Shown here: positions 32,460 to 51,696 of the stretch, piece after piece
How positions within the stretch are numbered: position 1 is the stretch's first letter
How the letters are laid out: each line of letters begins with the position of its first letter
Assembly: GCA_965223155.1 (NCBI GenBank)
Contig: CBDCVR010000013.1
Location: forward strand, 768,001-832,000
Reading direction: 5' to 3'
DNA from: Candidatus Multivoradales bacterium
Lineage (GTDB): Bacteria > Acidobacteriota > Thermoanaerobaculia > Multivoradales > JAHEKO01
DNA length: 64,000 nucleotides
Made by a program: the position numbers and the translations under genes
Notes under the pieces: model-generated
The model's input: only the letters and a program-made list of their open reading frames with translations
Database searches by the model: none
Told to the model about the DNA's origin: nothing

Positions 32460-32473
32460 CCTCTAGGAACCTC

Positions 32474-35400: not shown

Positions 35401-35785
35401 CAACGCCACTCCCAAGACCGCCGAAGACCTGGCCGAGCGGATCCGCGCCGGCATCGCCGGCCATCGTTTCGAGCTGGGTCCCGAGACCTCGGTCGAGCTG
35501 AGCTGCTCGATCGGCTTCGCCTCGTATCCCTTTCTGCGAAAGTTCCCGCGTGCGTTCACCTGGGAACAGGTGGTTGCCGTCGCCGACCGCGGTTTGTACT
35601 TCGCCAAGAAAAGCTGCCGCAATGCTTGGGCCGGAATCTCCGAGAACCACCGGGTGGACACCGTCCACCCGTCCTCGCTGCTCCACCAGATTAACCACGA
35701 GTTGGAGCAGTTGGTCCAGCTCGAAGTCGTCGAGCTCAGGACCTCGATCGAAGACGAGGCGGAGCTCGTCTGGGGCTGGACCTAG
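32474..35785 (+). CDS. Periplasmic beta-propeller (Reg_prop)/Y_Y_Y sensor diguanylate cyclase
   Basis: Signal peptide; many D..G.LWVGT..GGL repeats; YAYMLEG..W...ATYTNLDPGRYTF; TM; RDAD I-site and RWGGDEF. Confidence 0.93.
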   Translation: MPRHLRWSRWAATLVLLALATAASAQERRIPFDHVGLQEGLPHSTVNAIVQDDLGFVWLGTQDGLVHWDGNAFTAYRHEPGNQGSLSNNWVWTILKDSTGRLWIGTNEGGLNLWEPATRSFVQYRNDEMDPASLSNNRVRALLEDRNGRIWVGTESGLNVFDPIAGRFDRYFHDPSNPDSLSHNQIRTIFQDRRGSIWVGTNGGGLDRLDDAGGVFTHFRHDPDDPASLSRDRVRVVFEDRSDQLWVGTYEGGLNRFDPATGAFTRFAEEPGRSGSLLGNRVTSIHQDSNGVLWVGTFSGLNEWLPERQAFTRYAHNPADPASLSDNRVMTIFQDRGGVLWVGTQGGISKWNAVTGSFSGFRHDPAAPDRSLISNTVNALAEDAQGRLWIGTYEGLDVLDRGTGTVTHHLRDDAVPGRLRDDRVMSLHVDRGGTLWVGTFEGGLHRRRADGRFRNYRHDPDDPASLSRDAVTAILEDSQGVVWAGTYGGGLNRVKADGSGFIRYRNDPDNVTSIGNDKVLALLEASDGALWVGTDGGGLSRLDRRQGTFTRYRSNSDAESSLGADTIFSLAESSDGTLWIGTQGGGLSRWLKQDRIANRVRFKTYTTSDGLPNDVVYAILEDESGSLWLSTNDGLARFDPATETFRKYGTTHGLLSTEFNFGAFLKTRDGEMLFGSDQGVNFFQPSRIHANDHAPPVVLTSFLKFNQEERLEIPTPELRELYLTHKDYVVSFEFAALDFSAPERNSYAYMLEGFDTGWNEVGNLNRATYTNLDPGRYTFRVKASNNDDLWNENGVALAINVAPPPWRAWWAYLAYLAAALAVLLAVVRRQSAIRVREIQQRRELEDQVALRTTELAERNQELESAIDRLEHASVTDALTGLRNRRYLVNNIDADLALVDRHHENLKRRPKVAAEGPPPDFLFLLFDLDGFKQVNDTYGHAAGDLILLQVTEILRGACRDADTVIRWGGDEFLIVARNATPKTAEDLAERIRAGIAGHRFELGPETSVELSCSIGFASYPFLRKFPRAFTWEQVVAVADRGLYFAKKSCRNAWAGISENHRVDTVHPSSLLHQINHELEQLVQLEVVELRTSIEDEAELVWGWT

Positions 35786-36708
35786 CCCCCGGTCTCTTTA
35801 CCGCCAATCCGGTCGACAATGGCTCCGACCGCCTCGGGCAGCGCGTCGAGACTGTCGGGCAGCACGAGCTCCACGGCGTCAACGGCGGGGGCGGCTCCAG
35901 TGAAGAGATCGAAGGCCGCCGCCCTGAGCCATTGGGCAAAGAGACTCGATGCCGTGAGGTTGGCGAGAATCCGGGTCACGGCCTCACTTGGCGCCAGCGG
36001 CCGGACCGTGGGCGCCGACACGTCGGGCCTGCGTCGCGGAAAGACGATCGCGCCGAGCGGCGCGCTGGCCGGTTCGAGCGGCTGCTGGTCCGGCCCCATC
36101 TTGAGCTGGGGAAATCGCGGCAAGACCTTCAGCCCCGGCCCGGCCCCCGCCAGAATCACCTGATCGTCGGCCAACCTCGTGTGCCCCGCAGCTTCGGCAA
36201 CACGCGCGAATGTGGACTTCCCCGCCCCGCTCTCGCCGGCTGCGGCGACCACCCGATCCCCGATCTGAAAGGCCGAGGCGTGGAGGCTCCAGCGCCCACA
36301 GGCGGCCAGGGCCAGGGTCAGACCGGGGCCGAGCGCGGCGTACCGAGCCTGATCCTCGGACCGGGGGCCCTCGATCGTGAGATCCACCGCAGGAGCCGAG
36401 AAGCGGCATCGGAGCCACTGCCGACCCTCGAGCTCCAGCCTGGCCCCCTCGTCGCCTGTGTGGATCAGGTACCGGGTCCTCCGGCCGGCCAGCCAGTTAC
36501 GCCCCGCGAGGGTCTCCAGCATGGACCGGTGCTTCCCCGCCGGAGCGTCCGGCTTCGAAAACTCGACGCCGAACAGCGTGAACGGCGTCAGCTCGCGCAC
36601 CGTGCCTGTGGCGCTCACGGTCAGTCCGGCCAGGCCGTAGTGGCGCCAGCGCGGCTCTCCGTCTTCCTGAAACCAGAGACGTACCGTCTCTCCGTCCGGC
36701 ACCTTCAT
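35782..36708 (-). CDS. HPr kinase-like P-loop protein (lasso-cluster kinase type)
   Basis: LHASA, GESGAGKST, LADD, PRFPQLK; ATG at 36708 overlaps cyclase TGA (TGATG). Confidence 0.8.
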   Translation of the reverse strand: MKVPDGETVRLWFQEDGEPRWRHYGLAGLTVSATGTVRELTPFTLFGVEFSKPDAPAGKHRSMLETLAGRNWLAGRRTRYLIHTGDEGARLELEGRQWLRCRFSAPAVDLTIEGPRSEDQARYAALGPGLTLALAACGRWSLHASAFQIGDRVVAAAGESGAGKSTFARVAEAAGHTRLADDQVILAGAGPGLKVLPRFPQLKMGPDQQPLEPASAPLGAIVFPRRRPDVSAPTVRPLAPSEAVTRILANLTASSLFAQWLRAAAFDLFTGAAPAVDAVELVLPDSLDALPEAVGAIVDRIGGKETGG

Positions 36709-38378
36709 CAAGCCAGCTCCCAACCGTGACGGCCGCGCCAGAGCTCGAAGGACGCGCATCGCCAGAGCAGCGCCTTTTCCGCCTCCGACGAACGGGGCCC
36801 AACGGCCTCGACGGCTTCAGGGCGGACGAACTCCGGCCAAACCGCCCGCCTCCGGCCCAGCAGCTCGGCAATCGGTCCGGACTCGCGTTCGAAGACTCCC
36901 CGATCGAAGAGCGGCGAAAGATTGGCGGTGGTCTGGTTCCGGACCACCGCGTCCGGCAAGCGGCTGGTCATCGCCCGGCGCATCAGATCCTTGGCGCAAC
37001 CTGGCCTGGCGATCAGAAAGCTGGGGAGCGCCAGCAGGAGCTCGACGAGATCCGGGTCGAGATACGGCGAGACTACACGGACCCCGGCGTGGGACGCGTG
37101 CACCGCCTCGATCGGAAGTCCCCTACGCTCGAGATCCAGATAGGGCCGCACCAAGCGCGCGCGCGCGCCGGTGTCCTGCCCATCCTCCGGTGCCCGAGCC
37201 GATCCCGAGCTCGCGGCCACCCCCGGGCGGAGCCAAGCCCGGCTCGCGCGCGATGCAACCCGAGCCATGCGCCCGGCCGGACTTCCGATGCGGCCGATGG
37301 CTCCCAGCGCCTGACGCGGCCCCCGGCCACGGGCGATCTGGAGGATCGCGGCGGCGGCGCGGGCGAAGTGTCCGTGGCGCACGAGGTCCCGTACCAGGAG
37401 CTGCTGTACGCCGCGGTAGAGAGCGTCGGCCGGTCCCCCGTTCCAAAGCACGCCGACGCCCGCTTCGGCCGCCCTCCGGTACAGGCGCTGCTTGAGGCCC
37501 CGATAGGGATTCTCCTCGGGATGGCCCGGTTCGAGGCCGTAGGCGTCGGGGTCGGCAAGGGGCCAGCAGTCATCTCCGGAGACGCGCACGGCCGTGAGCC
37601 TAAGGCTCTCCACGACCGCGTCGATACGCTCCCTTTCGTCGCACGTCCTCAGCTCGTCGAAGATCCAGGAAGCAGCCACCGGCCGGCGCCCGGCCTGCTC
37701 AGCGTACTCGGCGGGCGCGGCAGGTTCGAACCGGGCCGCGGCGGCCGCCGCCAGGGCTCCTGAGTCGATTCCCCCGCTCAGCATCAGGCCAAGCTCACCG
37801 TCCGGCGGCGTCCAGCGCGCCGCCGCCGACTCGAGGGCCTTCCAGAGGCGCTCGGCGGCCTCTTCCGGCGAAAGGTCGCTCAGCGCGGCCGAGTCGGGCG
37901 GCTGGCCGCACGTCTCCAGCCGGCCGGGCTCGTCCGCCAGACCGCTCGGATCCGGCCGTGGGCCAGGCGGCGATCCGACGGGAAGCCGCACCCGGCAGCC
38001 GGCCGGCACCTCGAAGACTCCTCGGAAATGCGTCCGGCCCACCGTGGGGCTCTCGAGCGCGAAGAAACGAGCGAGCTGACCTCGATCCAAACCCGGCCGC
38101 ACCGGCAGGGTCGCCAGCAAGTCACTCAGGACCGACGACGAATAGAGCCGGCCCCCGGCCCGCGCGTAGTAGAGCCCCTCGGCACCGCTAGCGCCTCGCG
38201 CCAGGGTAACTCCTTCACCGTCCGGGTCCAGCCGAGTCCCGGTTTCGGAAAGAGCGCCGGGTTCCCGAAGCCGCCGCCGCCCGGGATGCGGCTCGGAGGC
38301 GGACGTGTCGACCCCGAAGCCATTCCTGGCCTGCATCCGGGTACCGGTGGCGAGGTCGAACACCGCCGAGCGCGACAT
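36708..38378 (-). CDS. Asparagine-synthetase-like protein, probable lasso peptide macrolactam cyclase
   Basis: LMLSGGIDSG PP-loop, WNGGPAD, SPYLDPDLVE..LALP, KDLMRRAM..RLP; no N-terminal catalytic Cys; directly after the precursor. Confidence 0.8.
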   Translation of the reverse strand: MSRSAVFDLATGTRMQARNGFGVDTSASEPHPGRRRLREPGALSETGTRLDPDGEGVTLARGASGAEGLYYARAGGRLYSSSVLSDLLATLPVRPGLDRGQLARFFALESPTVGRTHFRGVFEVPAGCRVRLPVGSPPGPRPDPSGLADEPGRLETCGQPPDSAALSDLSPEEAAERLWKALESAAARWTPPDGELGLMLSGGIDSGALAAAAAARFEPAAPAEYAEQAGRRPVAASWIFDELRTCDERERIDAVVESLRLTAVRVSGDDCWPLADPDAYGLEPGHPEENPYRGLKQRLYRRAAEAGVGVLWNGGPADALYRGVQQLLVRDLVRHGHFARAAAAILQIARGRGPRQALGAIGRIGSPAGRMARVASRASRAWLRPGVAASSGSARAPEDGQDTGARARLVRPYLDLERRGLPIEAVHASHAGVRVVSPYLDPDLVELLLALPSFLIARPGCAKDLMRRAMTSRLPDAVVRNQTTANLSPLFDRGVFERESGPIAELLGRRRAVWPEFVRPEAVEAVGPRSSEAEKALLWRCASFELWRGRHGWELA

Positions 38379-38437: not shown

Positions 38438-38644
38438 CTAGCCCTGGAACGGAGGGTTGAAGGCAAACGGATTGCCCGAGTCACCGACGCCGGGAGAGCC
38501 GCCCAAGGTCAGGCTGGCCAGCGAGCCGTAGCGCACGAGAGTCGGCTGGCGATAGGGCCTGCGGCCTTCGAGCGGCCGAAGTTCCGCCCCAGTCCGGTGA
38601 GCCGATTGCCGGCGCACCCGCGAACGCTCGCTGGCCTTGTCCAT
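38438..38644 (-). CDS. Lasso peptide precursor (68 aa; predicted core GGSPGVGDSGNPFAFNPPFQG)
   Basis: MDKASE...PYRQPTLVRYGSLASLTL|GGSPGVGD...; YxxPxL leader motif, Thr at -2, Gly1, Asp8; ATG overlaps the giant gene's TGA. Confidence 0.85.
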   Translation of the reverse strand: MDKASERSRVRRQSAHRTGAELRPLEGRRPYRQPTLVRYGSLASLTLGGSPGVGDSGNPFAFNPPFQG

Positions 38645-41600
38645 CAGGGCACGATTGTCATCGTCGGGTCGCCGAGAAGCGTCCATCCGAGAATAACATC
38701 CAAGCGACCCGGATCGCTCTCGGCCAGATCGCGCTTGGCCTCGACCACCGCGCCGCCAAGGCGAGCACCGGGGCTCGCCAGGCGGTCGAACACGCGACGT
38801 CCCAAACGCTGCTCGGAGAGGGCCTCGGTCAAGGTCGCGGCACCCAAAACCGCCGCCGCGCCCGTATCGGCCTCCAGCAGAAGCCGGTTGCCCAAGGTCT
38901 CGTAGGTCGGCAGCACGTGGTAGGTGTTCCAGCAGCCCCACTGGGTCACGACGGTCGGCTTGCCGCGGTTCTCGAGCCGATCGACGTCCGACGAGCGGAA
39001 GAGGCCGCTGAAGCTCCAGACGGTCAGGCCGGAGTGCCCAAAGTAGCTGGTGATTGCCGGGCCCTGGCCGATCTCGCGCACGAGCGCCTCGCGGGCATCT
39101 GTAAGCGGCATCTCGTCCAGATAGACCCGCTCGAGGGACCAATCGGAACCCAGGAGCGCCCCCATGGCGTCGCTCTTCTGTCCGAACGAGAACCCAGTCG
39201 GCGCGTCCCGCTTGTCCGCGGCTAGAACCGCGGTCAGCTCGCCGCCGTCGTAGAGCAGCGTCTTGTCGATCACCGCGGCCAGCTCGTCGAGAGTCCGCAC
39301 CGGCCAGCGGCCCACGGCCACCTCGGGGATGAGGTCCCCGTCCACGTCGCCGTACAGGGGATCCACCGGCGCGTAGCGGACGATCGCGTCGGTCTGGAGA
39401 TACGGAGTCGGGACGAAGCTCATCGAGCCGACACCCAGATGATCGAAGTAGTCGTAGGTGTCGCCGCCCACCAGCAGCAGATACCGTGTCCCGAGGCTCT
39501 TGTACGCGTCGCGGACGTAGCTTCGAATCGCCTCCGGATCCACAATGCCATTACTGTAGGCAGCGTAGACGTCGTCCACGTCGACGGTCCGGACCGCCAA
39601 GCCTTCACCGCGGCGACGGCTCTCCCAGCGGCCCAGGCCGTCCAGGAAGTCGGCGTGCGCGATCACGAGCACGTCGGCGGGCGCGTCGCCGAGATCGCTG
39701 GCGGCGCGAGCGGCCTCGATCGCCGGAACGCGGATCGAGCCGGCTCCGACCGTCCAGTACTCGGCATCGGCGGCACCCAGTCCCGAGAACGCAGCAGCGT
39801 AGCCTCCCAAACCGTCGGCCACCGTCGCCGCCTCGAGACGCGCCAGCGTGCCGGCGGTTCGTCCGTAGGCCACGACGTCGGTCGAAGCAAAGCCGCGCAC
39901 CAGGAAACTCCGGCCGCCGGACGCGAAGCTCAAAGCGTCGGCCCGGGCCACGAAGTCTCTCGGGTACCTGACCGTCAGGTGGTCGTAGTTAACAAGATCG
40001 AACTGGGCGCCCGTGTCATGCGGCAATAGCAGCCTCATCGTGTTGCCGGCCGGCGCCAGGAGGGCGTCGCTCAAGACCGCCGAGATCTCGGGTTGGTAGA
40101 GCCCGTCGAACCATTCCTCGGCAACCAGGCCGCCGTTGACCTCGACGACCAGATGGTGGTCGGGTGCCTGCGGCAGGTTCGTGACGCCGTAGGCCGACAC
40201 CTCGAGGGCCACGTCGGCGGCTCCGGGCAGCCAGTTGTCGAGGTCAAACGTCACCGACGTCTCGACAGGCTTCGTAGTCGCGAGCAGGCGCCGGTCGTAC
40301 CACGGATCACCGGTCGGCGAGGCGAAGTTGTACTGGCGCTCGACCTCGACCTTGTGGGTCTCGAGGTAGTAGGGCTCAGCGGCGCCCGCGCCGGAGTACG
40401 GCTCGATCTCCGCCCGCAGCGCCCGGTCCCGATTCACGCTCAGTCGATAGACGTTGGTCCGGGTGTAGAGGCTGTCGTCGACCGGCTCGCCCACGAACTC
40501 GAGAGACGAGCCGGGACCGAACGGACCCTCTCCGGACACCCAGAAGGGGACCGGCTCACCGCCGCTGGCCAGGCTCAGCCAGTCTCCTCGAATTCCCTGG
40601 AGGCGCACTCCCGCGGCTGCCAGATCTTCGTAGGTGACCCGGTAGATACCCGCCTCGGAAACCTTGAAAGTCGCCAGCTCGTCACCACGGCCCGGCCGGC
40701 CCGAATTCGAGCCACTCGAGCCTCCGTTCGAGCGCAACGCCCTGCCGCCGAACTCGATCGCGCCTCCGAGATCGGCCGAACCGGCCTCGGGCAGCACGCC
40801 GGCGTTCCGCCGCGCGGCCTTGCCCGCTTTCCGGCGCGCCTTGGCGTCCCGGATCTTGGCCCAGGCAACAGGTTGCGCGGAAACCACCTCCGACCCGGCG
40901 GCTTCATCCGCGTAGAACGGACCGTGGTGTCGAATGACGCCGTTGATATCCACGTCCTCCAGAAGGAAGGTATCGCCTGCGACTCCGGCGGCCGAGAACT
41001 CGTACACCTGCGGCTCGAGCGAGTCCACGACGTGGGACGGGATGAGCTCGTCGTTCAAGCGGCGCAAGCCGTCATCTTCGAGCGCGTAAAGATTGAAGCC
41101 GAGATTCCCGACCTCGGTCGAGGTCATCCAGCGGAAGTCCACCGATCCGCGTCCGTGGGCTTCGAAGTAGGCCAGAGTCACCGGCGTCGTGGTCACGCCC
41201 CCGTTCCAGAAGCCGAAGTCCTGATCGGTGACGTTCGAAGAGACCAGAGTCACCGGCTGGACCCCGCCGGTCCCGGCTTGGGTGGTCTGGACGAAGCCGT
41301 CGACCAAGGTGCCCTCGCTGTCGGCGTACACCAGATAGTCGCCCGGCGGCAGGTTGTCGAAGCTGTAGGTACCGTCGATCGCGGTCACGGTGGTCGCGAC
41401 CAGGGGATCGTCCGGATCGATGACTCCGTCGCCGTCCAGATCCTGATAGAGGTACACGGTTACCGAGGGCACCACCGGCTCGAGTCCGGTTCCCGCGAAG
41501 GAACCGTTGGCATCGCCGTCCTCGAACACGGTTCCGGAGATCGAGAGCGCGCCGGTCGGAAGGACGAAGCCGAAGTCCGCGGTGAAGTTGGACGAGTTCA

Positions 41601-44600
41601 AGGTCAGGGCGTACGGGTTGGTCTGATTGTTGTCGTCCTGGCCGGGGTTCGGACCCAGAACGGTAGCGGTCAGGCCAGCAGTCACGCCGTATTCATCGGT
41701 GAGCCGCGCGATGTAGTCGCCGGAGGGAATGCCCTCGCAGTAGTACTCGCCGGCCTCATCCGTCGTCTCGGTCCGGATCAGGTTGTCGGTACCGTCGATA
41801 TCCAGGATGCCGTTGCCGTTGACATCGTGCCAGCATTCCAGTGTCACGCCCGAGATCGGCGGCTCGCCAACCTGATAGACGCCGTCCAGATTGGTATCGA
41901 ACCACACCAGATTGCCAATCGAGCCCAGCCCGGCCTCGGGGCCGTAGCCAAAGTCGGCGGTTGCCGTAGAGCCCCCAGCGACCGAGACCGAGGTTTCCTC
42001 GTCGCAAGTCGAGCAGGTCCCGGACTCGTCGGGATCGCCCGTCTGCTGCAAGCCCACCAGAACGCTGTCGACGTCGGTGACCTCTACGGTGTAGGTGCCG
42101 TCGGGCACGCCGGTGAACTCGTAGTCGCCGTTTGCATCGGTGGTCGTCGTGGCGATGATGTTGCCCGAGCCATCGACCAGGTTGACGGTCACGCCGACGA
42201 TGCCGCCCTCGCTTCCACCTTCGACGCCGTCGTTGTCGCCATCGTTCCAGATCGTGCCCTCGATCGTATTGACGACGCCCCCGTCGTAGCCGAAGTCCAG
42301 CGTCGGCACCACGTCGCCATCGGCCAGGGTCAGTAGGTAGGTATCGTCACCGCCGTTGTTGGTCGGCGTGGTCGTGTAGCCGAGCGCGGCAATGCCGGCC
42401 GAGTCCACGGTCACGATGTAGTCGCCGGGCAGGAGGCCCGTGGCCAGCCAGGTCCCATCCGGGTTGGTGGTCACCGTGCAACCGGTCGGACACGACGGAC
42501 CCTGGATCAAGATGTCGATGCCGCCGATACCGACCTCGCCTTCGTCCTGGATGCCATCGCCGTCGGCGTCGTACCAGACGGTGTCGCCGATGGTGGCCGT
42601 GCCCGCCGTCGGCACGTAGCCGAAGTCGGCGTCGTTGTAGTCCTCGCCGTCCGAAAGCGCAATCGCTGTCGTCGTGTCGCCGCCGGTCGAGGAGGTCAGG
42701 CCGGTGGGCGCGGTCGGAACGTCCACGTAGTAGATGCCCGAGTCCAGCCCGCCAAAATCGTACTGACCGTTGGCGTTGGTGGTCGTCGAGCCCACGAAGA
42801 CGTCATCGGCGGTGCCGACGATGCCGTCCGGACCGGCGTCATAAAGATCCACCTGCACCCCGGAGATACCGCTCTCGTCGGGGCCCTGGACGCCGTCGCC
42901 ATTGGTGTCCAGAAAGACCGTGTCGCCGATCGAGGCCGTGCCGGTGTCCTGGACATAGCCGAAGTCCACGTCGTCAATGTCGGAGCCGGCCAGGGTCACG
43001 TCCAGCGCGTCGAGTCCGCTGGTCAAGGTGTAGCCGTCGAGCACGTTGTCGGTATCGGTCACCACCACCGTGTAGTCACCGTCGGGAAGATCCGGAAAGC
43101 TGTAGTCCCCGTTCGAATCGGTGACAGTGGTCGCGATGACCGCGCCGGTGTCGTCCAGGAGCTCGAGGGTGACGCCGCCGATTCCGGCTTCGGTGCCGTC
43201 CTGGATCCCGTCGGTGTCGGTATCGTTGAACACGGTTCCGAAAACGTCGGCAAGAGACGTGTCCTGGTAGCCGTACTCGATTCCGGTCACGCTCTCGCCC
43301 GCGTTCAGGGTGACCGCAGTCGTGGTCGTACCGTCGCAGACCGTGCAGGTTCCAGACTCGTCGGGGTCGCCGGTCTGGGAGCCGCTGGGCGCCGCGCCCA
43401 CCGTCACCACGTAGTTGTCGGGAGCCAGGTCACCGAAGGAGTAGCTGCCATCAGCCGCGGTAGTGGTCTGGGCCACAAAGTTGGGGCTCGACGGATCGCA
43501 GGGACTCGCGGGATCCGTACAGAGATAGATCGGCACGCCCTCGATTCCCGCCTCTTCCGGGTCGTGGACGCCATCGCCGTCGGCGTCGCTCCACACGGTT
43601 CCGGACAGAGTGTCCGGCTCGTTGTAGCCGAAGCTGGGCGTGCCGCCGTCGGACGGAGCGTTGAGGACGTCTCCGCCCGAGACCACGACGTCCTCGACGC
43701 CTCCGGTCGCGGTGGTCTCGGTAAAGCCGTCGAGCTCGCTCGCCGTATCCGTGACCTGAAGCTGGTAGACGCCGTCGGTCACGCCGGTGAACGACACTTC
43801 ACCGTTCTCATCCGTGATCGCGGTCGCGATCGTGGTGTCGTCGGCAGCGTTGGCCCCACCGCAAATGCCGTCGGCGCCGCAGTCGACCAGATCCACGGTG
43901 ACACCCGGGATCATCTCTTCGCCGGGATCCAGCACGCCGTCTCCATCCGCGTCATACCAGACCGCGTCGCTGACCTCGTAGCTCGTTGACGTATCGAAGC
44001 CAAAGTCGACGTCACTGATGATGTCGTTCTCCAGTACCGAGATCGGATCGCTCTGAGTAGGACTGGTCTCGCAGCCGGCTACCGGGTCGGGACTGCAAAA
44101 CGCCACCAGCTCGGGGTCGGTCGTGTCTACGACGACGATGTACTCACCGGGCGGCACGTCGGTCAGAAGATAGGAGCCGTCCGGTCCGGTGACCGCGGTG
44201 ATCGGCTGCCCGCCGGAGTCAAGGACCGGCGTGCCGTCGGGATTCAAGAGCTGCACGGTTACACCGGCGATGCCCACCTCTCCGGGATCCTGAATCCCAT
44301 CCTGATCGGCGTCGCTCCACACGGTCCCTTCGATGACCGCGGTACCTGAATCCGGGACGTACCCGAAGTCTGCCGTTTCCGTTTCTCCGGCCGCCAGCGT
44401 CAGGGTGCCCGAGTTGCCCGCCACGTTGCCCGGCGATTCTTCCAAGCCATCCAGGTCGCCACCGGTCAGTTCGGCCGGTTCGACCTGGGTCTGATAGTCG
44501 CCCGCCGACAGATCCGGGAAGCTGTAGTCGCCGGCGGCGTCGGTCACCGCGGTGGCAATGGCGGTCGAGGCGTCGCAGACGGGCTCGGAAGCCTCACAGA

Positions 44601-46908
44601 GATAGACCGTAACGCCATCGATCCCGGGCTCGCCGATGTCATGGACACCGTCACCGTCGGTATCGAGCCAGACGGTCCCTTCGATCGCCGAACACGTGCT
44701 GCCGCCATTGCCGATCGTGTCCAGATTGTTGCCAGGATTCGGATCGTTGTTGTCGGCCGTGACATACGCCACGTTGTCAAATTCGCAAGCCCGCGCCACC
44801 GGATTGCCGGCGACGTCCCCGTCCGAGTCACTGTTGTTGGACGTATCCTGATCCGCCTCATCGGCGCTCACGGTGACCACATTGTCGAACGGTCCCGAGG
44901 CATCGATCGTCGCAATCACAGTGATCACTTCGCTAGCGCCGGACGCAAGGCTGGGAATCGTACAGGGCAAGGCACCGCAACTCGCGCTCGAGACGCTGGT
45001 GATCGTGAGATTGCTCGCGACGTCGGTGACCAGCACGTTCGTGGCCAGAGAGGGACCGTTGTTGGTCACCACCATCGAGTAGGTCACGGTCTGGCCGGAA
45101 ACGTAGGGGCCGGCGGTGATCAGGGTCTTGGTAACCGCGACGTCGGCCCCGACCGGATTGACGGCGTCGTCCGAGATCGGGTCAATCCCGGTCGCCGAGG
45201 CCTCGGCCGTGTTGGTCAGCTCGGTGATCGCCGGGTCCAGCGGATCGTCTACCAGAACCTGAAACGTCACGGTCAGAGTCTCGCCTGGAGCCAGCGTGAA
45301 ACCGTCTCCCGACTCGACCAGGCTCGGCGGTGTGCCGTCCACCAGGTCCATGTTCGTCCCACCCGGTACGTTGTCTTTGGTCGTCGTGCCCGAAGCACCG
45401 TGGGCTTCGATGACGATGTTGTCGAAGTAGACGTCTTCCGAAGAGCTGGTCGTACCCGACCGCAAGCGGATCACGGTGCTCGCATTCCCGGCCGTGATCG
45501 ACACCGACTCCGTCCCCGACTGGTTGTCGTCCTCCTCTGGACACACCTGGGTCCCGTCACGGCTGAACACCGTCGAGAACGTCCCTCCTCCATTGGTCGA
45601 GACCTGGACGTCCAGAAAATCGCTCGACTCCCAGCCGCTGCTGGTGTCGTTGCACTCCCAGGTGAAAGACAACGTGGCGCTGGTGTAGGCGCTCAGGTCT
45701 GCCGACCTGGAAGCCGTGCCTGACGAGCCACCGTTCATGAACACCGCATTGGACAGACCTCCGGGAGAGGTCGTCTCGATGCTCGAGCTATTGAACGTCC
45801 AGTTGCCCGACCAGCCGGTTCCTCCAGTGCCGTCGCCGCTCGAGAAGTCGTCGCTGATGGTGGCCGAGCTGTCCACCGGACCCGTCGCCGCCGTGCTCTG
45901 CGCCACGTAGGTGACCCCGGTCGGCAGCGTGTCGGTCACCACCACGTCGTTGACGTTACCGGGACCGCTGTTGGTCACCTCGATCGTGTAGGTGATCGTC
46001 TCCCCAGGCTGAACCGAACCACTTGGACTCGCCGTCTTGACGATCGACAGGGCCGGTGGGACGTCCTCGACGCAAAGCGCGAACCCGGACAGACGAACCG
46101 CGTGTCCGTTGCTCTCCCCCGTACCGCTCTCGTTGGTCGCATCGTCCGGACCGTTGTTGTATGTGAAGTTGAGCGTGTCGAACGCCGCACCGCTGGACAC
46201 GGTCAACGTTCCGGCCGCATCCCCTGGAGAGAGGTTCCCATTGACGCCGGGCGCCACAATCGCCGTCGCCGTCTGACCCGAAACGGTCATGTTGCTGCCG
46301 CCGCTCAAGGTCAGGGGAACATTGCTGCCCCCGTCCGAGGCCGAAAAGGTCAGCTGATCCTGAAACGACTCTTCGGGCTCCGGCGCCTGAGCCCCGAACC
46401 CGACGTCATCGATGTCACCAAGCGAGAAGTCGTTCAGGATCACCGACTTCGAGAACGTGAAATCGAACCCGATGGTGTCGCTCACCGAGTTGACGCTGGC
46501 CATCTTCACAGTCAGGAAGCCCGAACCGAACGCCCCGTTGGTCTCGGTCTTCGTCGTCGTCGGATTGTCGCAGCCATTCGATAGCGCCGCCGGACACGAG
46601 AAGTTGTCGTCGTAGTTCATCCCGTCCGGATCCTGCAGCGTCACCGTCACGTCCAGCGTGTTCGGGTTGCCGTAGGCGTCCGTGTAGGCGACGGTGTAGA
46701 TCTCCGACGCCCCAGTCGTGTTGTTAGCGATCGTCCACTCGTTGCCCGTACCCGGAGACGTTGACCAGTCGAAGGTCGCCGCCGCCGTCCCCGACGGGCA
46801 GCTCTGGGCTACCGCTTGGGCCGGAGCCAGCAACCAGCCGAGAGCAAGAGCCGGCGCCAGGCGCAGCGCCAGGCCCGGCCATCGCCTCATCGACCAAAGG
46901 TCCGTCAT
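38644..46908 (-). CDS. Giant secreted surface protein: N-terminal domain, DUF11 repeats, 10 SdrD-B-like repeats, C-terminal C25 (gingipain/PorU-like) cysteine peptidase
   Basis: Signal peptide (AQAVA); DUF11 motifs; ten G.VW.D.D.DG..D..E.GI.GV repeats; TPVTLAYF; LLLVGGD, VAVGRWP, YFGHSG, WGCWN, LLGDP. Confidence 0.9.
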   Translation of the reverse strand: MTDLWSMRRWPGLALRLAPALALGWLLAPAQAVAQSCPSGTAAATFDWSTSPGTGNEWTIANNTTGASEIYTVAYTDAYGNPNTLDVTVTLQDPDGMNYDDNFSCPAALSNGCDNPTTTKTETNGAFGSGFLTVKMASVNSVSDTIGFDFTFSKSVILNDFSLGDIDDVGFGAQAPEPEESFQDQLTFSASDGGSNVPLTLSGGSNMTVSGQTATAIVAPGVNGNLSPGDAAGTLTVSSGAAFDTLNFTYNNGPDDATNESGTGESNGHAVRLSGFALCVEDVPPALSIVKTASPSGSVQPGETITYTIEVTNSGPGNVNDVVVTDTLPTGVTYVAQSTAATGPVDSSATISDDFSSGDGTGGTGWSGNWTFNSSSIETTSPGGLSNAVFMNGGSSGTASRSADLSAYTSATLSFTWECNDTSSGWESSDFLDVQVSTNGGGTFSTVFSRDGTQVCPEEDDNQSGTESVSITAGNASTVIRLRSGTTSSSEDVYFDNIVIEAHGASGTTTKDNVPGGTNMDLVDGTPPSLVESGDGFTLAPGETLTVTFQVLVDDPLDPAITELTNTAEASATGIDPISDDAVNPVGADVAVTKTLITAGPYVSGQTVTYSMVVTNNGPSLATNVLVTDVASNLTITSVSSASCGALPCTIPSLASGASEVITVIATIDASGPFDNVVTVSADEADQDTSNNSDSDGDVAGNPVARACEFDNVAYVTADNNDPNPGNNLDTIGNGGSTCSAIEGTVWLDTDGDGVHDIGEPGIDGVTVYLCEASEPVCDASTAIATAVTDAAGDYSFPDLSAGDYQTQVEPAELTGGDLDGLEESPGNVAGNSGTLTLAAGETETADFGYVPDSGTAVIEGTVWSDADQDGIQDPGEVGIAGVTVQLLNPDGTPVLDSGGQPITAVTGPDGSYLLTDVPPGEYIVVVDTTDPELVAFCSPDPVAGCETSPTQSDPISVLENDIISDVDFGFDTSTSYEVSDAVWYDADGDGVLDPGEEMIPGVTVDLVDCGADGICGGANAADDTTIATAITDENGEVSFTGVTDGVYQLQVTDTASELDGFTETTATGGVEDVVVSGGDVLNAPSDGGTPSFGYNEPDTLSGTVWSDADGDGVHDPEEAGIEGVPIYLCTDPASPCDPSSPNFVAQTTTAADGSYSFGDLAPDNYVVTVGAAPSGSQTGDPDESGTCTVCDGTTTTAVTLNAGESVTGIEYGYQDTSLADVFGTVFNDTDTDGIQDGTEAGIGGVTLELLDDTGAVIATTVTDSNGDYSFPDLPDGDYTVVVTDTDNVLDGYTLTSGLDALDVTLAGSDIDDVDFGYVQDTGTASIGDTVFLDTNGDGVQGPDESGISGVQVDLYDAGPDGIVGTADDVFVGSTTTNANGQYDFGGLDSGIYYVDVPTAPTGLTSSTGGDTTTAIALSDGEDYNDADFGYVPTAGTATIGDTVWYDADGDGIQDEGEVGIGGIDILIQGPSCPTGCTVTTNPDGTWLATGLLPGDYIVTVDSAGIAALGYTTTPTNNGGDDTYLLTLADGDVVPTLDFGYDGGVVNTIEGTIWNDGDNDGVEGGSEGGIVGVTVNLVDGSGNIIATTTTDANGDYEFTGVPDGTYTVEVTDVDSVLVGLQQTGDPDESGTCSTCDEETSVSVAGGSTATADFGYGPEAGLGSIGNLVWFDTNLDGVYQVGEPPISGVTLECWHDVNGNGILDIDGTDNLIRTETTDEAGEYYCEGIPSGDYIARLTDEYGVTAGLTATVLGPNPGQDDNNQTNPYALTLNSSNFTADFGFVLPTGALSISGTVFEDGDANGSFAGTGLEPVVPSVTVYLYQDLDGDGVIDPDDPLVATTVTAIDGTYSFDNLPPGDYLVYADSEGTLVDGFVQTTQAGTGGVQPVTLVSSNVTDQDFGFWNGGVTTTPVTLAYFEAHGRGSVDFRWMTSTEVGNLGFNLYALEDDGLRRLNDELIPSHVVDSLEPQVYEFSAAGVAGDTFLLEDVDINGVIRHHGPFYADEAAGSEVVSAQPVAWAKIRDAKARRKAGKAARRNAGVLPEAGSADLGGAIEFGGRALRSNGGSSGSNSGRPGRGDELATFKVSEAGIYRVTYEDLAAAGVRLQGIRGDWLSLASGGEPVPFWVSGEGPFGPGSSLEFVGEPVDDSLYTRTNVYRLSVNRDRALRAEIEPYSGAGAAEPYYLETHKVEVERQYNFASPTGDPWYDRRLLATTKPVETSVTFDLDNWLPGAADVALEVSAYGVTNLPQAPDHHLVVEVNGGLVAEEWFDGLYQPEISAVLSDALLAPAGNTMRLLLPHDTGAQFDLVNYDHLTVRYPRDFVARADALSFASGGRSFLVRGFASTDVVAYGRTAGTLARLEAATVADGLGGYAAAFSGLGAADAEYWTVGAGSIRVPAIEAARAASDLGDAPADVLVIAHADFLDGLGRWESRRRGEGLAVRTVDVDDVYAAYSNGIVDPEAIRSYVRDAYKSLGTRYLLLVGGDTYDYFDHLGVGSMSFVPTPYLQTDAIVRYAPVDPLYGDVDGDLIPEVAVGRWPVRTLDELAAVIDKTLLYDGGELTAVLAADKRDAPTGFSFGQKSDAMGALLGSDWSLERVYLDEMPLTDAREALVREIGQGPAITSYFGHSGLTVWSFSGLFRSSDVDRLENRGKPTVVTQWGCWNTYHVLPTYETLGNRLLLEADTGAAAVLGAATLTEALSEQRLGRRVFDRLASPGARLGGAVVEAKRDLAESDPGRLDVILGWTLLGDPTMTIVP
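45152..45960. repeat. Copy 1 of a near-identical direct repeat (partner at about 47164-47972, offset 2012 bp)
   Basis: By-eye alignment shows about ten substitutions across the central ~750 bp. Confidence 0.9.
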
Positions 46909-48944
46909 TGGATAGTCGCCGTCACAGTGAGAACGACGGTCGCTCCGGCACTAAGATTCGGGATCACACAAGGAAGGCTGGCGCAGCCTCCGCCCGACAC
47001 CGAGTCGATCGTGAGGTTGGTCGGAGCGTCATAAACGGTCACGTTGGTCGCGTCCGCCGGGCCGGCGTTACTGACAATCAACTCGTAGGTAATCGTCTGG
47101 CTTGAGGAATAGGGCCCGGCCGTAACGAGGTTCTTGACGACGCTGACGTCGGCATCCGTCGCCACCGGATTGACGGCATCGTCGGAGATCGGATCGATCC
47201 CGGTCGCCGAGGCCTCGGCCGTGTTGGTCAGCTCGGTGATCGCCGGGTCCAGCGGATCGTCTACCAGGACCTGAAACGTCACGGTCAGAGTCTCGCCGGG
47301 AGCCAGCGCGAAATCGTCTCCCGACTCGACCAGGCTCGGCGGTGTGCCGTCCACCAGGTCCGCGTTCGTCCCACCCGGTACGTTGTCCTTGGTCGTCGTG
47401 CCCGAAGCACCGTGGGCTTCGATGACGATGTTGTCGAAGTAGACGTCTTCCGAAGAGCTGGTCGTACCCGACCGCAAGCGGATCACGGTGCTCGCATTCC
47501 CGGCCGAGATCGACACCGACTCCGTCCCCGACTGGTTGTCGTCCTCCTCTGGACACACCTGGGTCCCGTCACGGCTGAACACCGTCGAGAACGTCCCTCC
47601 TCCATTGGTCGAGACCTGGACGTCCAGAAAATCGCTCGACTCCCAGCCGCTGCTGGTGTCGTTGCACTCCCAGGTGAAAGACAACGTGGCGCTCGTGTAG
47701 GCGCTCAGGTCTGCCGACCTGGAAGCCGTGCCTGACGAGCCACCGTTCATGAACACCGCATTGGACAGACCTCCGGGAGAGGTCGTCTCGATGCTCGAGC
47801 TATTGAACGTCCAGTTGCCCGACCAGCCGGTTCCTCCAGTGCCGTCGCCGCTCGAGAAGTCGTCGCTGATGGTGGCCGAGCTGTCCACCGGACCCGTCGC
47901 CACCGTGCTCTGCGCCACGTAGGTGACCCCGGTCGGCAGCGTGTCGGTCACCACTACGTCGTTGACGTTGCCGGGGCCGCTGTTGATTACCTCGATCGTG
48001 TACGTGATCGTCTCACCAGGCTGAACCAAACCGCTCGGACCCGCCGTCTTGACGATCGATAGGGCCGGTGGGGTGTCCTGGACGCAAAGCACCTGAAACC
48101 CGGAGATGCGGACCGCGTGCCCGTTACTCTCCCCCGTGCCGCTCGAGTCCGCCGTGTCGTCCGGACCATTCGAATACTCGAAGCTGAACGTGTCGAAAAG
48201 GCCCGTCGATGACGCCGTCAGTGTGCCCGCGGCGTCGTCGGGAGTCAGGTTGCCATTGACCCCCGCCACCACGATCGCCGTCGCCGTCTGTCCCGAGAGC
48301 GATATGTTCGAGCCGCCCGAAAGGGTCAAAGGAACGTTCGCACCACCGGCCGAGGCCGTCAGTGTTACCTGATCCTGAAAGGACTCCTCTGGCTCTGGCG
48401 CCTGCGCGCCGACGCCCACGTCGTCGATGTCTCCGATCGTGAAGTCGCTCATCGACACCAGCTTCGAGAAGGAGAAGTCGAAACCTACCGTGTCCGTCAC
48501 CGAGTTCACACTCGCCATGCCCACGGTCAAAAAGCCCGAACCGTACGACCCGTTTGTCTGGGTGTCAAAGCCTGGGTCGCAGCCGTTCGACAAGGCCGCC
48601 GGACACGCGAAGTTGGTGTCGAAATTCATCGCATCCGGATCCTGGAGCGCCACCGTGACGTCCAGCGTGTTCGGATTGCCGTAGGCGTCGGTGTAGCCGA
48701 TCGAATAGACCTGCGAGTTGCCGTCCGTATCGTTACTCGACAGCCACTCGTTGCCCGTACCAGGGGTACTCGACCAGTCGAACGTCGCCGCCGCCGTGCC
48801 CGACGGGCAGCCTTGGGCTACGACATCTGAGCCCGGGACCAGTCCTAGTACGGCCCCAAGCAGGAGGCTCGAGACCACACGCCGCCGCCGGCCCGAGGAG
48901 CCGGGCGGATTCTTGGGAGGTACACCGGGGGAAAGTTCGTTCAT
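46905..48944 (-). CDS. Secreted DUF11 protein (679 aa), paralog of the N-terminal region of the giant protein
   Basis: Signal peptide ending VVAQ; same N-domain and DUF11 with insert; last DUF11 truncated at ATIQ*; ATGA overlap with the giant gene; start MNELS fits the upstream promoter. Confidence 0.88.
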   Translation of the reverse strand: MNELSPGVPPKNPPGSSGRRRRVVSSLLLGAVLGLVPGSDVVAQGCPSGTAAATFDWSSTPGTGNEWLSSNDTDGNSQVYSIGYTDAYGNPNTLDVTVALQDPDAMNFDTNFACPAALSNGCDPGFDTQTNGSYGSGFLTVGMASVNSVTDTVGFDFSFSKLVSMSDFTIGDIDDVGVGAQAPEPEESFQDQVTLTASAGGANVPLTLSGGSNISLSGQTATAIVVAGVNGNLTPDDAAGTLTASSTGLFDTFSFEYSNGPDDTADSSGTGESNGHAVRISGFQVLCVQDTPPALSIVKTAGPSGLVQPGETITYTIEVINSGPGNVNDVVVTDTLPTGVTYVAQSTVATGPVDSSATISDDFSSGDGTGGTGWSGNWTFNSSSIETTSPGGLSNAVFMNGGSSGTASRSADLSAYTSATLSFTWECNDTSSGWESSDFLDVQVSTNGGGTFSTVFSRDGTQVCPEEDDNQSGTESVSISAGNASTVIRLRSGTTSSSEDVYFDNIVIEAHGASGTTTKDNVPGGTNADLVDGTPPSLVESGDDFALAPGETLTVTFQVLVDDPLDPAITELTNTAEASATGIDPISDDAVNPVATDADVSVVKNLVTAGPYSSSQTITYELIVSNAGPADATNVTVYDAPTNLTIDSVSGGGCASLPCVIPNLSAGATVVLTVTATIQ
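47164..47972. repeat. Copy 2 of the near-identical direct repeat
   Basis: Matches 45152-45960. Confidence 0.9.
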
Positions 48945-49280: not shown

Positions 49281-50477
49281 CTAGAGGCCTTCTTCGTAGA
49301 AGATGCGCCAGCGTCCGCCTTCCTGGCGCCAGTACTGGTGCTTGCGGCGCTGGGCGCGAAAATTGTCGGACTCGTAGCGCTGGACGAAGTCCACCAGGAC
49401 CAAATCGCTTTCGCCGGGATACCGATACATGCCGACCTCGGCCAGCTCGACTCGGATGTAGCGCTTGGAGCTGTTGACGCGGCGCTTGTGGTTGGCGAAA
49501 GCGGTTCGGCTCATGCCGGGCGTGCGGAACTCGCGAGAGTAGTGACTGAGATAGCGGTCCGGATCGCGACTCTCCCAATCCCGCCGCCACGTTTCGAGCG
49601 CCTGCTCGAGGTTCCGGCGAGCGACGCCGTGCTCATCCTGCCGGACCCAATCGATGGTCCGCGCCACGATCACCGGGGTTCGATCCACTCGAACGTGCCT
49701 CTCAAGCAGTTCGAAGTCTCGATTGCTCAGAGTCACACAGCCCCGGCTCGAAAGCGGCGGCCGGCTATAGCTCGTGAACTCGGTGCCGTGAATCCAGATG
49801 CCGCTGCCGGTGCGACCCTGGAGCCGGTCCCACGCATTGGGATAGTTGATCGGGAACGCACCGACTCCGTAGAGGTCGGGCAACTCCTTCTCGGGCAGGT
49901 AGTCGTTGACGAGATAGACCCCGACCGGCGTTTTCTCGTCTCCTTCGCGCCGCTTGTCGCTGCCGCCTTTGCCGATCGAAACGTAGAAGTCCCGGGTGCG
50001 CACGAAGCGGTGGTCGCGCTGCTCGAAGAGGAACAGCCGATAGCCTTCCAGGTCGATGACGATGGCCGCGGGGGTGCCCGCCGGCAAACGTAGTAGCTCT
50101 GCCGGCACCGCGTCGGGCGGAGGGGACTCCAGATAGCGCTGCAGTCGAGCGCGCGCTTCGTCGAGGTGCTCGGTAACCCGGCCGCCCGCCTTACCGTTGC
50201 CGGGTCCGGACAGGATCTGCGCGTGCGCGCTCAGGAGATCCGCGTAAAGCAACTGCGCCAATCGGAAGTCAGGCTGCTCGCGAACCAGAAACGACACGTT
50301 GCGCAGCGCCTCCTGGATGCGTCCCTGCCGCAAATCGAAGAGGCTCTGCATCAGCCGGCGCTCTTCGAGCGTCGTCGGGCTGCGGTCGGCCGCCGGGGCG
50401 AATCCGGCCCCCCAGGCGGCGGACGCAATCGTCCCGGCTACCCCGAGAGTAGCGACCCATGAAGCTCGCTTGCACAT
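49281..50477 (-). CDS. L,D-transpeptidase/carboxypeptidase (YkuD) with C-terminal NTF2-like domain, Csd6-like
   Basis: KRREGDEKTPVG, YPNAWD, GSGIWIHG...SRGCV; C-term WRRDWES...YLSHYS...QRYES. Confidence 0.88.
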   Translation of the reverse strand: MCKRASWVATLGVAGTIASAAWGAGFAPAADRSPTTLEERRLMQSLFDLRQGRIQEALRNVSFLVREQPDFRLAQLLYADLLSAHAQILSGPGNGKAGGRVTEHLDEARARLQRYLESPPPDAVPAELLRLPAGTPAAIVIDLEGYRLFLFEQRDHRFVRTRDFYVSIGKGGSDKRREGDEKTPVGVYLVNDYLPEKELPDLYGVGAFPINYPNAWDRLQGRTGSGIWIHGTEFTSYSRPPLSSRGCVTLSNRDFELLERHVRVDRTPVIVARTIDWVRQDEHGVARRNLEQALETWRRDWESRDPDRYLSHYSREFRTPGMSRTAFANHKRRVNSSKRYIRVELAEVGMYRYPGESDLVLVDFVQRYESDNFRAQRRKHQYWRQEGGRWRIFYEEGL

Positions 50478-50499
50478 CAGCTCTCTGAGATCGGGCCGC

Positions 50500-51696
50500 T
50501 CAGGACTCGACGGTCTCCGCAACGATCTTCCACTCGCCACCCTCCCGCGCCAGCTCCAGGGCCTTGGTGACCACGTCGCTGAAGGTGTTGGACTCGTAGG
50601 ACTGGTTGAAACGCACCACCGCCCGATCCTCCTCGTCCAGCTCGAAATCCAGAAACGCCACCGAGACCTCGATGTACTCGGGCGCGGTCAAGCGCTGCCG
50701 CCGGAGAGACTCCCACGCCTCCCGGCTGGAGCCATCGGTGGGCACGAAGTCGCTGGAGTAGAGATAGAGGTAGTCATCGACCCGCTGGTCGGACCAGGCC
50801 TTGGCCCAGGCTTCGACCACAGCAGCCAGATCCGCCGGATTGGGCAAGAGGGTCTCAGACTCCACCGGGATCTCTTGGACGACCGGTTCACGCACCGTTC
50901 CGAGCATTGGCTCGGTTGGAGCCTCTTCCTCGACGACTTCCCCGGCGGCCTCCCGCTCGGCCCGGGCTCGGGCCAGGGCTTCGGCGATCGCCTCCTCCGG
51001 CGACGTGATTGGCGGGCCTTCGTCGGCCGGCTCGCCCCCGTCGTCGTGGGGCTCGCCGCCTGCTTGCGTCTCCTCGACCGGAGGACCCACCGGATCGCCC
51101 GCCTCTTCCTCGAGACGTGCGGCTTCCGAGCTAGCTACTTTGTCGGGCCTGTCCTCCGAAGCCTTCGCCGCCGCCAGCACCGCCATCTCGGTCTCCGGCA
51201 GGATCATCTCGCTCAGCATGACCAGTTCCACCGCGGACCGATCCCGCACCTGGTCCACGTTGAGCGCCCTGCCATAGGCCTCGCTTGCGAGCTGGCCGTA
51301 GATCTTGGTCAGATTCTCGTACACCGTGCGATAGGCGGGATCGGTGCGCAGGGCTTCCTTGAGGGTCTCGACCGCCAGCTCGTAGTCCCCGGCCGCGGCC
51401 TGCAGGACCGCCAGGTTGTTGTACGGTTCAGGACGGTCCGGCCGCAGCTCGGAAAGCTCTTCGTAGACCCCCTGGGCCTCTCCCTCCTTGCGCGACTCCG
51501 CCAGCATCAGGCCCCGCAGAAACAAGGCGTGCGGATCGTGCGGATTGTCCCGAAGATGCTCCGCTACGAGCCCCAGCGCTTGGTTCACCTTGCCCCGCTG
51601 GGCCAGGTCGCGGGCCTCTTCCAGGTCCGCCAAGGCCGGAGCCGACAATGCTCCGGCAAGCACAACAGTGAGAATCGCCTGGCGACAGCGCTGCAT
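50500..51696 (-). CDS. Secreted TPR protein with C-terminal Csd6-like NTF2 domain
   Basis: Signal peptide; PEPYNNLAVL..A.G.Y..A TPRs; acidic linker; WAKAWSDQRVDDYL..YS...FNQSYES...WKIVAE. Confidence 0.85.
   Translation of the reverse strand: MQRCRQAILTVVLAGALSAPALADLEEARDLAQRGKVNQALGLVAEHLRDNPHDPHALFLRGLMLAESRKEGEAQGVYEELSELRPDRPEPYNNLAVLQAAAGDYELAVETLKEALRTDPAYRTVYENLTKIYGQLASEAYGRALNVDQVRDRSAVELVMLSEMILPETEMAVLAAAKASEDRPDKVASSEAARLEEEAGDPVGPPVEETQAGGEPHDDGGEPADEGPPITSPEEAIAEALARARAEREAAGEVVEEEAPTEPMLGTVREPVVQEIPVESETLLPNPADLAAVVEAWAKAWSDQRVDDYLYLYSSDFVPTDGSSREAWESLRRQRLTAPEYIEVSVAFLDFELDEEDRAVVRFNQSYESNTFSDVVTKALELAREGGEWKIVAETVES

Follow-up and report, generated by a model that had tools for sequence, protein, structure and literature searches.

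Complementary parts of a CLIPPER (DUF11) domain encoded by two adjacent adhesin genes of a Multivoradales bacterium: a candidate natural catcher/tag pair

Described isopeptide domains and strand-complemented fibres

Within single adhesin chains, autocatalytic isopeptide domains are known to act as internal staples, and the joining of two proteins through them is known from engineering and from a few homopolymeric fibres. SpyTag/SpyCatcher, SnoopTag/SnoopCatcher and isopeptag are engineered split isopeptide pairs made from CnaB-type domains of Gram-positive proteins. Here we describe two adjacent genes in a stretch of 64,000 nucleotides from Candidatus Multivoradales bacterium (assembly GCA_965223155.1, contig CBDCVR010000013.1, positions 768,001–832,000), which is referred to below as the window. 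The smaller gene encodes a "catcher" protein that ends in a truncated DUF11 domain, and the larger encodes a giant adhesin that carries, behind a complete DUF11 domain, an orphan C-terminal piece of such a domain, which we have designated the tag. In our reading, which we hold with moderate confidence, each gene supplies one half of a single CLIPPER (DUF11) isopeptide domain, and the two products would form a natural hetero-bimolecular catcher/tag pair. As in the engineered pairs, a strand with one reactive residue is parted from the domain, which retains its second reactive residue together with the catalytic acid, and reconstitution would be expected to yield a spontaneous covalent bond. The man-made pairs, however, are of CnaB type with a short linear peptide at a terminus, whereas the pair described here is natural and CnaA-like, and its tag, of approximately 38 residues and bracketed by cysteines, may be internal.

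DUF11 was renamed CLIPPER in a 2025 survey (Costa et al., Protein Sci 2025, PMC12617251). The crystal structure described there (9IFR) contains an intramolecular isopeptide bond from a lysine of the first strand to an asparagine near the C-terminus, with an aspartate nearby (K715, N806 and D748, respectively), and this bond lifts the melting temperature from ~45 °C to ~80 °C (PMC12617251). An earlier reading of the window, made from the sequence only, had cited DUF11 as a proposed isopeptide domain, and the Lys-Asn bond with its catalytic Asp has since been shown experimentally (PMC12617251). The domains of the window are like CLIPPER in their Pfam family, in the positions of Lys, Asp and Asn, in their place in the stalk of a long secreted Gram-negative adhesin and in that disulfides are common in the domain. 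They are unlike the CLIPPER of that paper, in which all strands and the triad are in one chain, in that the chain is here broken after position ~85 and the parts are found in two gene products. The words 'split', 'truncated' and 'strand complementation' do not occur in the main text of PMC12617251 (its supplementary tables lay outside this check), and a search of the full-text literature, with supplementary files outside its scope, found no natural split or intermolecular CLIPPER/DUF11 domain described. A search of PDB sequences with a segment of the giant and with its alignment gave no significant match and did not recover 9IFR.

Completion of an immunoglobulin-like (Ig-like) fold in trans is known from chaperone-usher and type V pili, in which a subunit without its C-terminal strand is completed by the next one; this assembly is non-covalent and polymerising, and proceeds with a chaperone and usher or by proteolytic priming. 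The catcher is likewise an Ig-like fold short of its C-terminal strand, to be completed in trans. No chaperone or usher gene was seen near the catcher/tag pair, and the 19 neighbouring open reading frames (ORFs) scanned gave no match to an usher, chaperone or sortase family; the giant itself ends in a C25 peptidase domain of the gingipain/PorU-like kind. Donor-strand complementation of the chaperone-usher and type V kind is mentioned in the discussion of the paper on the Sulfolobus thread Saci_0406, where donor-strand exchange is accompanied by an isopeptide from the N-terminal amine to Asn (PMC9715654). In the BsaA/TasA-like matrix fibre of Clostridium perfringens, donor-strand exchange is locked by an intermolecular isopeptide with an N-E-K triad (bioRxiv 10.1101/2024.11.04.621531). 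The assembly proposed here is like these two fibres in that an incomplete beta-sandwich would be completed by the strand of another polypeptide and then locked by an intermolecular isopeptide. Both fibres, as described in these papers, are homopolymers with groove and donor in one subunit and with other folds and residues, whereas here two proteins with one half each would form a 1:1 heterodimer with the CLIPPER fold. A donor-strand polymer, in which each subunit has groove and donor, does not fit this genome, which has one catcher and one tag on separate proteins.

A DUF11 domain divided over two adjacent genes

Both genes are on the minus strand. The small gene (46905–48944), identified by its ORF and translation, Pfam matches and homologues, encodes a protein of 679 amino acids that starts MNELSPG, and the giant gene (38644–46908; ORF and Pfam) encodes 2754 amino acids. 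The stop codon of the former and the ATG of the latter overlap as ATGA (46905–46908); an alternative start of the giant, M7 (MRRWPG...), is found 18 nt beyond this overlap. Judged from the translations, both proteins open with a signal-peptide-like sequence. That of the small protein, a likely Sec signal peptide of amino acids 1–44 (48813–48944, minus strand), combines an RRRR n-region with a hydrophobic core, its last residues being VVAQ before GCPSG; it is followed by a head, consisting of an N-terminal module and a CLIPPER_2/DUF7507 domain with an inserted domain, and by the C-terminally truncated DUF11. Pfam analysis of the giant revealed, after its signal peptide, a paralogous head with a DUF7507 piece, the complete DUF11, the tag, ten SdrD_B stretches, out of some 10 or more repeats, and a C-terminal Peptidase_C25 module. 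Readthrough or frameshifting that would join the small gene to the giant was rejected, as there is a second in-frame stop codon 15 nt on and the tag is 2.1 kb downstream.

The catcher domain (amino acids 596–679; 46908–47159, minus strand) was delimited with Pfam and with a model of our own, which has 112 positions and was built from four complete domains. It is a DUF11/CLIPPER body without the C-terminal, Asn-bearing part. The small protein scored 70.0 bits with Pfam DUF11 (PF01345; cut-off 24.6), and its terminal domain aligned to Pfam positions 1–84 of 114, ending in TVTATIQ with the stop codon directly after, which leaves an incomplete sandwich in one chain. On the 112-position model it covered positions 5–87 and ended where the ORF ends. 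A scan of the whole genome (4.0 Mb) found no second domain of this kind. Lys604 (DVSVVK; 47133–47135, minus strand) stands at the site of the isopeptide lysine and Asp639 (VTVYD; 47028–47030, minus strand) at that of the catalytic aspartate; each is invariant in the six aligned catchers described below and is also present in a seventh, encoded by the metagenome contig L059. The sequence-only reading had described a DUF11 body with Lys and Asp and without the final strand at the end of the small protein, and was right in this and in the coordinates of Lys604. In cis the catcher has Lys604 and Asp639 and no Asn-bearing strand, and the triad is complete only across two chains. The Cys pair of the catcher (C-x4-C) is the same as in ordinary complete DUF11 domains.

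The complete DUF11/CLIPPER domain of the giant (amino acids 589–695; 44824–45144, minus strand) aligned to Pfam positions 1–111 of 114, with a Pfam DUF11 score of the giant of 97.0 bits against the same cut-off of 24.6. It has the Lys and the Asp as well as a last strand of its own that bears the Asn (GPFDNVVTV). The sequence that follows, NPVARACEFDNVAYVTADNNDPNPGNNLDTIGNGGSTC (amino acids 702–739; 44692–44805, minus strand), is the tag, an orphan C-terminal DUF11 piece bracketed by cysteines, which can be written NPVARA-C708-EFDN712-VAYVTADNNDPNPGNNLDTIGNGGST-C739. Asn712 of the EFDN motif (44773–44775, minus strand) is at the position of the isopeptide asparagine and is invariant in 6/6 tags. 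On its own the tag matched Pfam DUF11 positions 87–111 with an E value of 0.04, which is weak, as expected for 25 residues, and it aligned to positions 89–112 of the 112-position model. These matches agree with the earlier description of a complete DUF11 followed by an orphan piece with Asn712, for which the coordinates given were also right. That description had called the piece a copy of just the last strand; it does bear the Asn, but it represents the whole C-terminal part of the domain (positions ~87–111), and the two invariant Cys that bracket it were absent from the description. The common linker before both halves was also correctly seen: the 12-mer AATCCGGTGGCG is present twice in the window (47160–47171 and 44794–44805), against 0.03 expected, and is not kept at the DNA level in other loci. 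There is no truncated DUF11 in the giant and no tag in the catcher protein.

On the 112-position model the catchers stop at positions 85–87, and 6/6 tags start at positions 84–90 and run to position 112, so the two pieces abut. With Lys and Asp on the catcher chain and Asn on the tag chain, the two polypeptides sum to one isopeptide domain, and the three reactive residues are thus divided between small protein and giant in the way first claimed. DUF11 hits that end at a stop codon at positions 85–87 were found in only four distinct loci, among 445 hits in 112 loci; one further row at these positions was set aside as an artefact of masked sequence. These four loci are the window, the genomes G036 and G056 and contig L059, and each has a tag in the next gene. 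Judged by these alignments, the catcher/tag arrangement is more than chance.

The tag is also set apart from the last strands of ordinary DUF11 domains. With a model built from the six tags, tags scored 85–99 bits and ordinary last strands no more than 51 bits; the tag of the window scored 97 bits, against 46 bits or less for ordinary last strands, and over 155 loci the scores were bimodal (85–93 bits or ≤46 bits). Ordinary domains of the subfamily end in ...GAFDN..V.A.E.DPD.SNN.DNTGNGGSAG, and the tag is the same C-terminal part with a Cys at each end. Besides the missing body, its hallmark is an invariant Cys two residues before the F of FDN together with a second Cys 31 residues later, which was found in 6/6 tags; the first of these Cys was present in 0/177 ordinary, body-attached last strands. 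An ordinary tandem DUF11 protein (L155, G917:C786, 730–2106) ends in IPTVSEWGLILLTAMLAIAAMLKART, which comprises a sorting-signal-like motif, a membrane helix and a basic tail.

Recurrence, linkage and selection of the pair

A search of a collection of 5.8 billion proteins with the small protein gave 20 matches at E ≤ 1e-5, of which nine were examined; ten weaker ones (P0013–P0022), with 6–19% query coverage, were outside the end-point count. Six proteins, including the query, share the end point, terminating in TVTATIQ, TVTATVQ, IVTATVQ, TVTATVP, TVTATVP and INVEAEVP, and the terminal DUF11 of one of the matches, P0010, aligned to Pfam positions 2–84 of 114. The six aligned catchers showed 42–59% identity to the query protein (37–55% by BLASTP). 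In P0008, P0009, P0011 and P0012 the head is joined to something else. A seventh catcher, with an unrelated head, was found on contig L059, and the end point is the same in 7/7 catchers. Lys and Asp are kept in 7/7 catchers and Asn in 6/6 tags.

Downstream DNA was available for four catchers (window, G036, G056 and L059), and the next gene encodes a tag in 4/4. The gap between catcher gene and tag gene is −4 nt in the window, +11 nt in G036, +12 nt in G056 and ~64 nt in L059. G036 and G056 belong to the same order as the window genome and to other families, and have the same gene pair: a catcher protein of 642 or 676 amino acids, then a GGAG-type ribosome-binding site and a giant of ~3000 amino acids. 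In the G036 giant the complete DUF11 is followed by the tag ...FACEFDNVAFVSAT...GGSAC, and in the G056 giant by ...LDCQFDNIAFITAD...SGSTC. In both genomes the N-terminal head of the giant is unlike the head of the catcher, and the cut is therefore more than the junction left by a recent duplication. The two different tip domains that the sequence-only reading had foreseen are likewise found in the G036 and G056 pairs and not in the window, where the heads of the small and giant proteins are 82% identical paralogues. The inserted head domain varies among catcher proteins, and amino acids 367–503 of P0005 (G056) encode a galactose-binding F5/8 type C domain (NedA-like). The sequences suggest that the catcher heads are exchangeable lectin-type modules.

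A scan of metagenomes with the giant segment gave 56 loci, two of which have tags (L059 and L067). L059 is a 1884 bp contig of 45% GC from an unrelated, AT-rich organism. Its upstream ORF encodes a CshA-repeat/Big_9-type head and a truncated DUF11 ending ...TITVQATAP*, and its downstream ORF a signal peptide followed at once by the tag ...KACQFDNVAGVVADQIDPDISNNEDITGNNGDTC and then by DUF7507 repeats. In L067 (41% GC) the tag also comes directly after the signal peptide. Neither tag protein has a DUF11 body. Recurrence of the complementary truncation in homologous loci had been set beforehand as a test of the sequence-only reading, and it was found in seven catchers and four catcher-then-tag pairs, one of them in this AT-rich organism. 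The sixth tag is in the giant of a further genome, G052 (L056, G052:C6, 1852–7713). This giant starts directly after the stop codon of an upstream PBP4-like gene; it has no signal peptide, lacks ~170 residues from the start of the head and contains a frameshift near the C-terminus, and is likely to be a decaying copy.

The tags of L067 and G052 have no adjacent catcher, and this would fit a reading in which catcher and tag are reactive modules with other targets, the catcher grabbing a tag-like strand on another cell or on a host protein, or the tag recruiting the catchers of neighbours for cell-cell adhesion. The signal peptides and adhesin-like heads of both proteins, including the P0005 head with its galactose-binding insert, would fit such a role. 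We nevertheless regard it as improbable: in 4/4 pairs catcher gene and tag gene are neighbours, always in the same order and with translational coupling, which argues for 1:1 assembly, the genome encodes a single catcher and a single tag, and the G052 tag is located in a degraded gene.

The system has a narrow distribution. A scan with the tag model found one tag in the window genome, and tags in 4/300 genomes of the order at 93–99 bits, the next best matches (43 bits) being ordinary last strands. In a 401-genome sample of the phylum the tag was found only in the window genome, and in a 401-genome sample of the class only in the window genome, G036 and G056, an extra match of 51 bits being an ordinary tandem array. 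Terminal truncated DUF11 domains of any kind were scanned for in the window genome and in G052. A metagenome scan with the small-protein alignment found no relatives. Among the best 150 of 4173 matches to the 90 amino acid catcher domain in a representative library, which were mostly multi-repeat DUF11 giants, no best stretch was at a protein end, and this search is uninformative on further catchers. Of two word-indexed searches, the one with the tag region of the giant returned only the query itself among 27 candidates; the one with the tag alignment, made among longer proteins, retrieved the giant of G052, the protein of L067 and a pair of ordinary tandem-DUF11 proteins, and nothing else.

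Comparison of three GC-rich pairs of catcher domains gave a ratio of nonsynonymous to synonymous substitution rates (dN/dS) of 0.18–0.20 at a dS of 1.2–1.9, the comparisons with L059 being saturated; these values show purifying selection on the catcher domains. A tree of domain bodies separated the complete domains of the giants from a single clade (support 89/73) that comprises the catchers of the window, P0004, G056, G036 and P0007; the placement of P0010 and L059 was not settled. The features of a decayed duplicate are absent, as the end point is not arbitrary (the same in 7/7), dN/dS is ~0.2 and the frames are intact.

Over the first 668 residues of the giant, the small protein shares 82% identity with it (528/646), and this likeness stops at the last residues of the small protein. 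Within the heads, nucleotides 982–1791 of the small gene (47154–47963, minus strand) showed 96–100% identity to a tract of the giant gene (45148–45951, minus strand), with 58–85% identity in the flanks and a drop to 58–66% exactly at the start of DUF11. This near-identical tract of ~800 nt looks like recent or ongoing gene conversion of the inserted head domain that spares the two different versions of DUF11. A rival account is that the two pieces are not partners at all, the small gene being a partial tandem duplicate of the 5′-end of the giant gene, or encoding an independent secreted lectin with a shortened domain that is stable as such, and the orphan piece being just a linker left by the internal deletion of a second DUF11. 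A likeness that ends exactly at the stop codon, the identical 12-mer before both pieces, as duplication or deletion would give, a tract still being homogenised between the genes and the rarity of the trait are all consistent with this. It is a poor explanation, and we give it little credence, for the end point is the same in 7/7 catchers, including those of G036 and G056, where the giant heads are different and the genes do not overlap. The L059 tag, directly after a signal peptide in an unrelated organism and next to a different catcher head, cannot be a deletion remnant. The dN/dS of ~0.2, the clustering of catcher bodies in a clade of their own and not each with the domain of its own giant, and the gain by the tags of two invariant Cys that are absent from 177 ordinary strands also argue against it.

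Misassembly was rejected on the grounds of a short-read contig that spans the junction and of the same arrangement in the independent assemblies of G036, G056 and L059. The Logan short-read contig, of 1303–1314 bp (45913–47226), covers the catcher, the stop codon and the giant start and head with 0 differences in three runs; these runs represent two samples of one study, possibly the source sample, and so are not independent support for the assembly. The repeat shared by the two genes (758 bp) was collapsed into one short-read contig at ~1.6-fold depth, as two copies would predict. Recombination between the ~800-nt copies would remove the catcher domain and the 5′-end of the giant gene and fuse the giant to the N-terminal head of the small protein. 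Among the reads, no convincing joint of this kind was found; two weak joints in contigs, with sides of 20–21 letters, were disregarded.

Proposed assembly of the two proteins

In the assembly that we propose, the small and giant genes would be co-transcribed and translationally coupled, and both proteins would be exported, after which the tag hairpin would slot into the small protein's open sandwich by donor-strand complementation. The two Cys at its base would probably staple the ~38-residue tag into a hairpin, the two ends of which would leave the catcher at the same pole and let the stalk of the giant continue. A Lys-Asn isopeptide would then form autocatalytically, so that the small protein would be held on the stalk as a side branch. 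The outcome would be a branched adhesin with two heads in the window, G036 and G056. In L059, where the tag is at the mature N-terminus of the downstream protein, the same chemistry would give a head-to-tail join. The observation made from the sequence only is confirmed, and the interpretation drawn from it, taken as a whole, is partly supported. What the analysis establishes is the split, its exact complementarity and recurrence, the close linkage of the genes and purifying selection on the catcher; entry of the tag in trans, the disulfide staple and the covalent bond are inferred.

The nature of the lock is the point at which a different account deserves most attention. Strand complementation with a lock that is either non-covalent, in the style of chaperone-usher and type V pili, or made of disulfides through the tag Cys would account just as well for the complementary split, for its recurrence and for the linkage of the genes. 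The trait specific to the tag is the Cys pair (6/6 tags vs 0/177 ordinary strands) and not a change in the triad, and since the triad is found in 80% of ordinary DUF11 domains, its retention could be inertia. BsaA oligomers without the isopeptide, moreover, are reported to be stable in sodium dodecyl sulphate until 95 °C (bioRxiv 10.1101/2024.11.04.621531). However, Lys and Asp are retained in every catcher and Asn in every tag, in pairs with synonymous sites close to saturation. The C-x4-C of the catcher is the same as in ordinary domains and so looks like an internal pair and not a partner of the tag, and the tag Cys, at the two ends of the piece, fit an intrachain staple; both argue against a disulfide lock. 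We consider a lock other than an isopeptide unlikely, though a real contender.

Several observations weigh against the catcher/tag reading itself. K/[DE]/[ND] is present in 218/272 ordinary full-length DUF11 domains of the examined loci, so that conservation of the triad is little beyond background, and the use of triad conservation as a statistical argument was dropped for this reason. The system is rare, with no tag outside the order in the phylum and class genome samples. L059 is a fragment in which both genes are incomplete, no catcher ORF was found in the 1.2 kb upstream of the L067 tag, and a scan of the whole G052 genome (96% complete) with the catcher query found no catcher to go with its tag, which makes G052 the one genome that has a tag without a catcher. 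No chaperone for the incomplete fold was seen among the 19 neighbouring ORFs. The organism, which we call a diderm because of the genes for an RND efflux system in the window, would have to bring two Sec-exported proteins together after export by a route for which the reading does not account.

The C-terminal module of the giant (amino acids ~2080–2751; 38656–40600) resembles the type IX secretion system (T9SS) sortase PorU, scoring 127.6 bits with the NCBIfam model T9SS_sortase, for which the cut-off is 420. It includes the Peptidase_C25 domain (amino acids 2414–2751; 38656–39669, minus strand; Pfam 204 bits), with motifs YFGHSG and QWGCWN that we take to be a possible His/Cys dyad. The module may serve in self-processing, anchoring or transpeptidation. 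The C25 module also ends related giants and the ~1400 amino acid proteins of the genome G022. The latter are two paralogues (L023, G022:C5, 1455–5744 and 12945–17153) that are direct fusions of the same head with the C25 module, with no DUF11, SdrD stalk or tag, and represent a short form of this adhesin family without a split. As the small protein of the window has no such module, this fusion provides a rationale for joining it to the giant.

Directly downstream of the giant gene and on the same strand is a gene of the asparagine synthase family (36708–38378). Further downstream (27281–35785) are genes encoding a sigma-54 activator with GGDEF and GAF domains, a PAS-GGDEF-EAL response regulator and a Reg_prop/Y_Y_Y-GGDEF protein, three signalling genes possibly involved in cyclic di-GMP control of surface adhesion. 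Upstream of the small gene (49281–51696) are two adjacent genes that encode a Cds6_C NTF2-like C-terminal domain, one together with a YkuD L,D-transpeptidase domain and the other with TPR repeats. Promoter and terminator, Rfam and tRNA scans found nothing, and a look-up of RNA runs returned none.

What sets this locus apart from the described systems is that the arrangement is heterotypic, with one half on each protein and with the CLIPPER fold. We judge the chances to be evenly balanced that it represents a natural, transferable ligation module made of an open CLIPPER catcher and a disulfide-stapled hairpin tag, with the tag internal or N-terminal and with exchangeable head cassettes in the small gene, that gives, outside the cytoplasm, adhesin architectures beyond those of a single gene (in L059 an extended fibre joined head to tail), and the first natural heterotypic counterpart of SpyTag/SpyCatcher. 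Were the reading true, protein engineers would have a naturally optimised, ready-made orthogonal pair in a CnaA-like fold, with a tag that tolerates an internal position. It would add a new route of adhesin assembly and make it worth seeking 'truncated' terminal Ig-like domains, which are usually dismissed as fragments. It would also mean that bacteria use catcher/tag chemistry to build heteromeric surface structures after export, including branched ones that no linear gene specifies.

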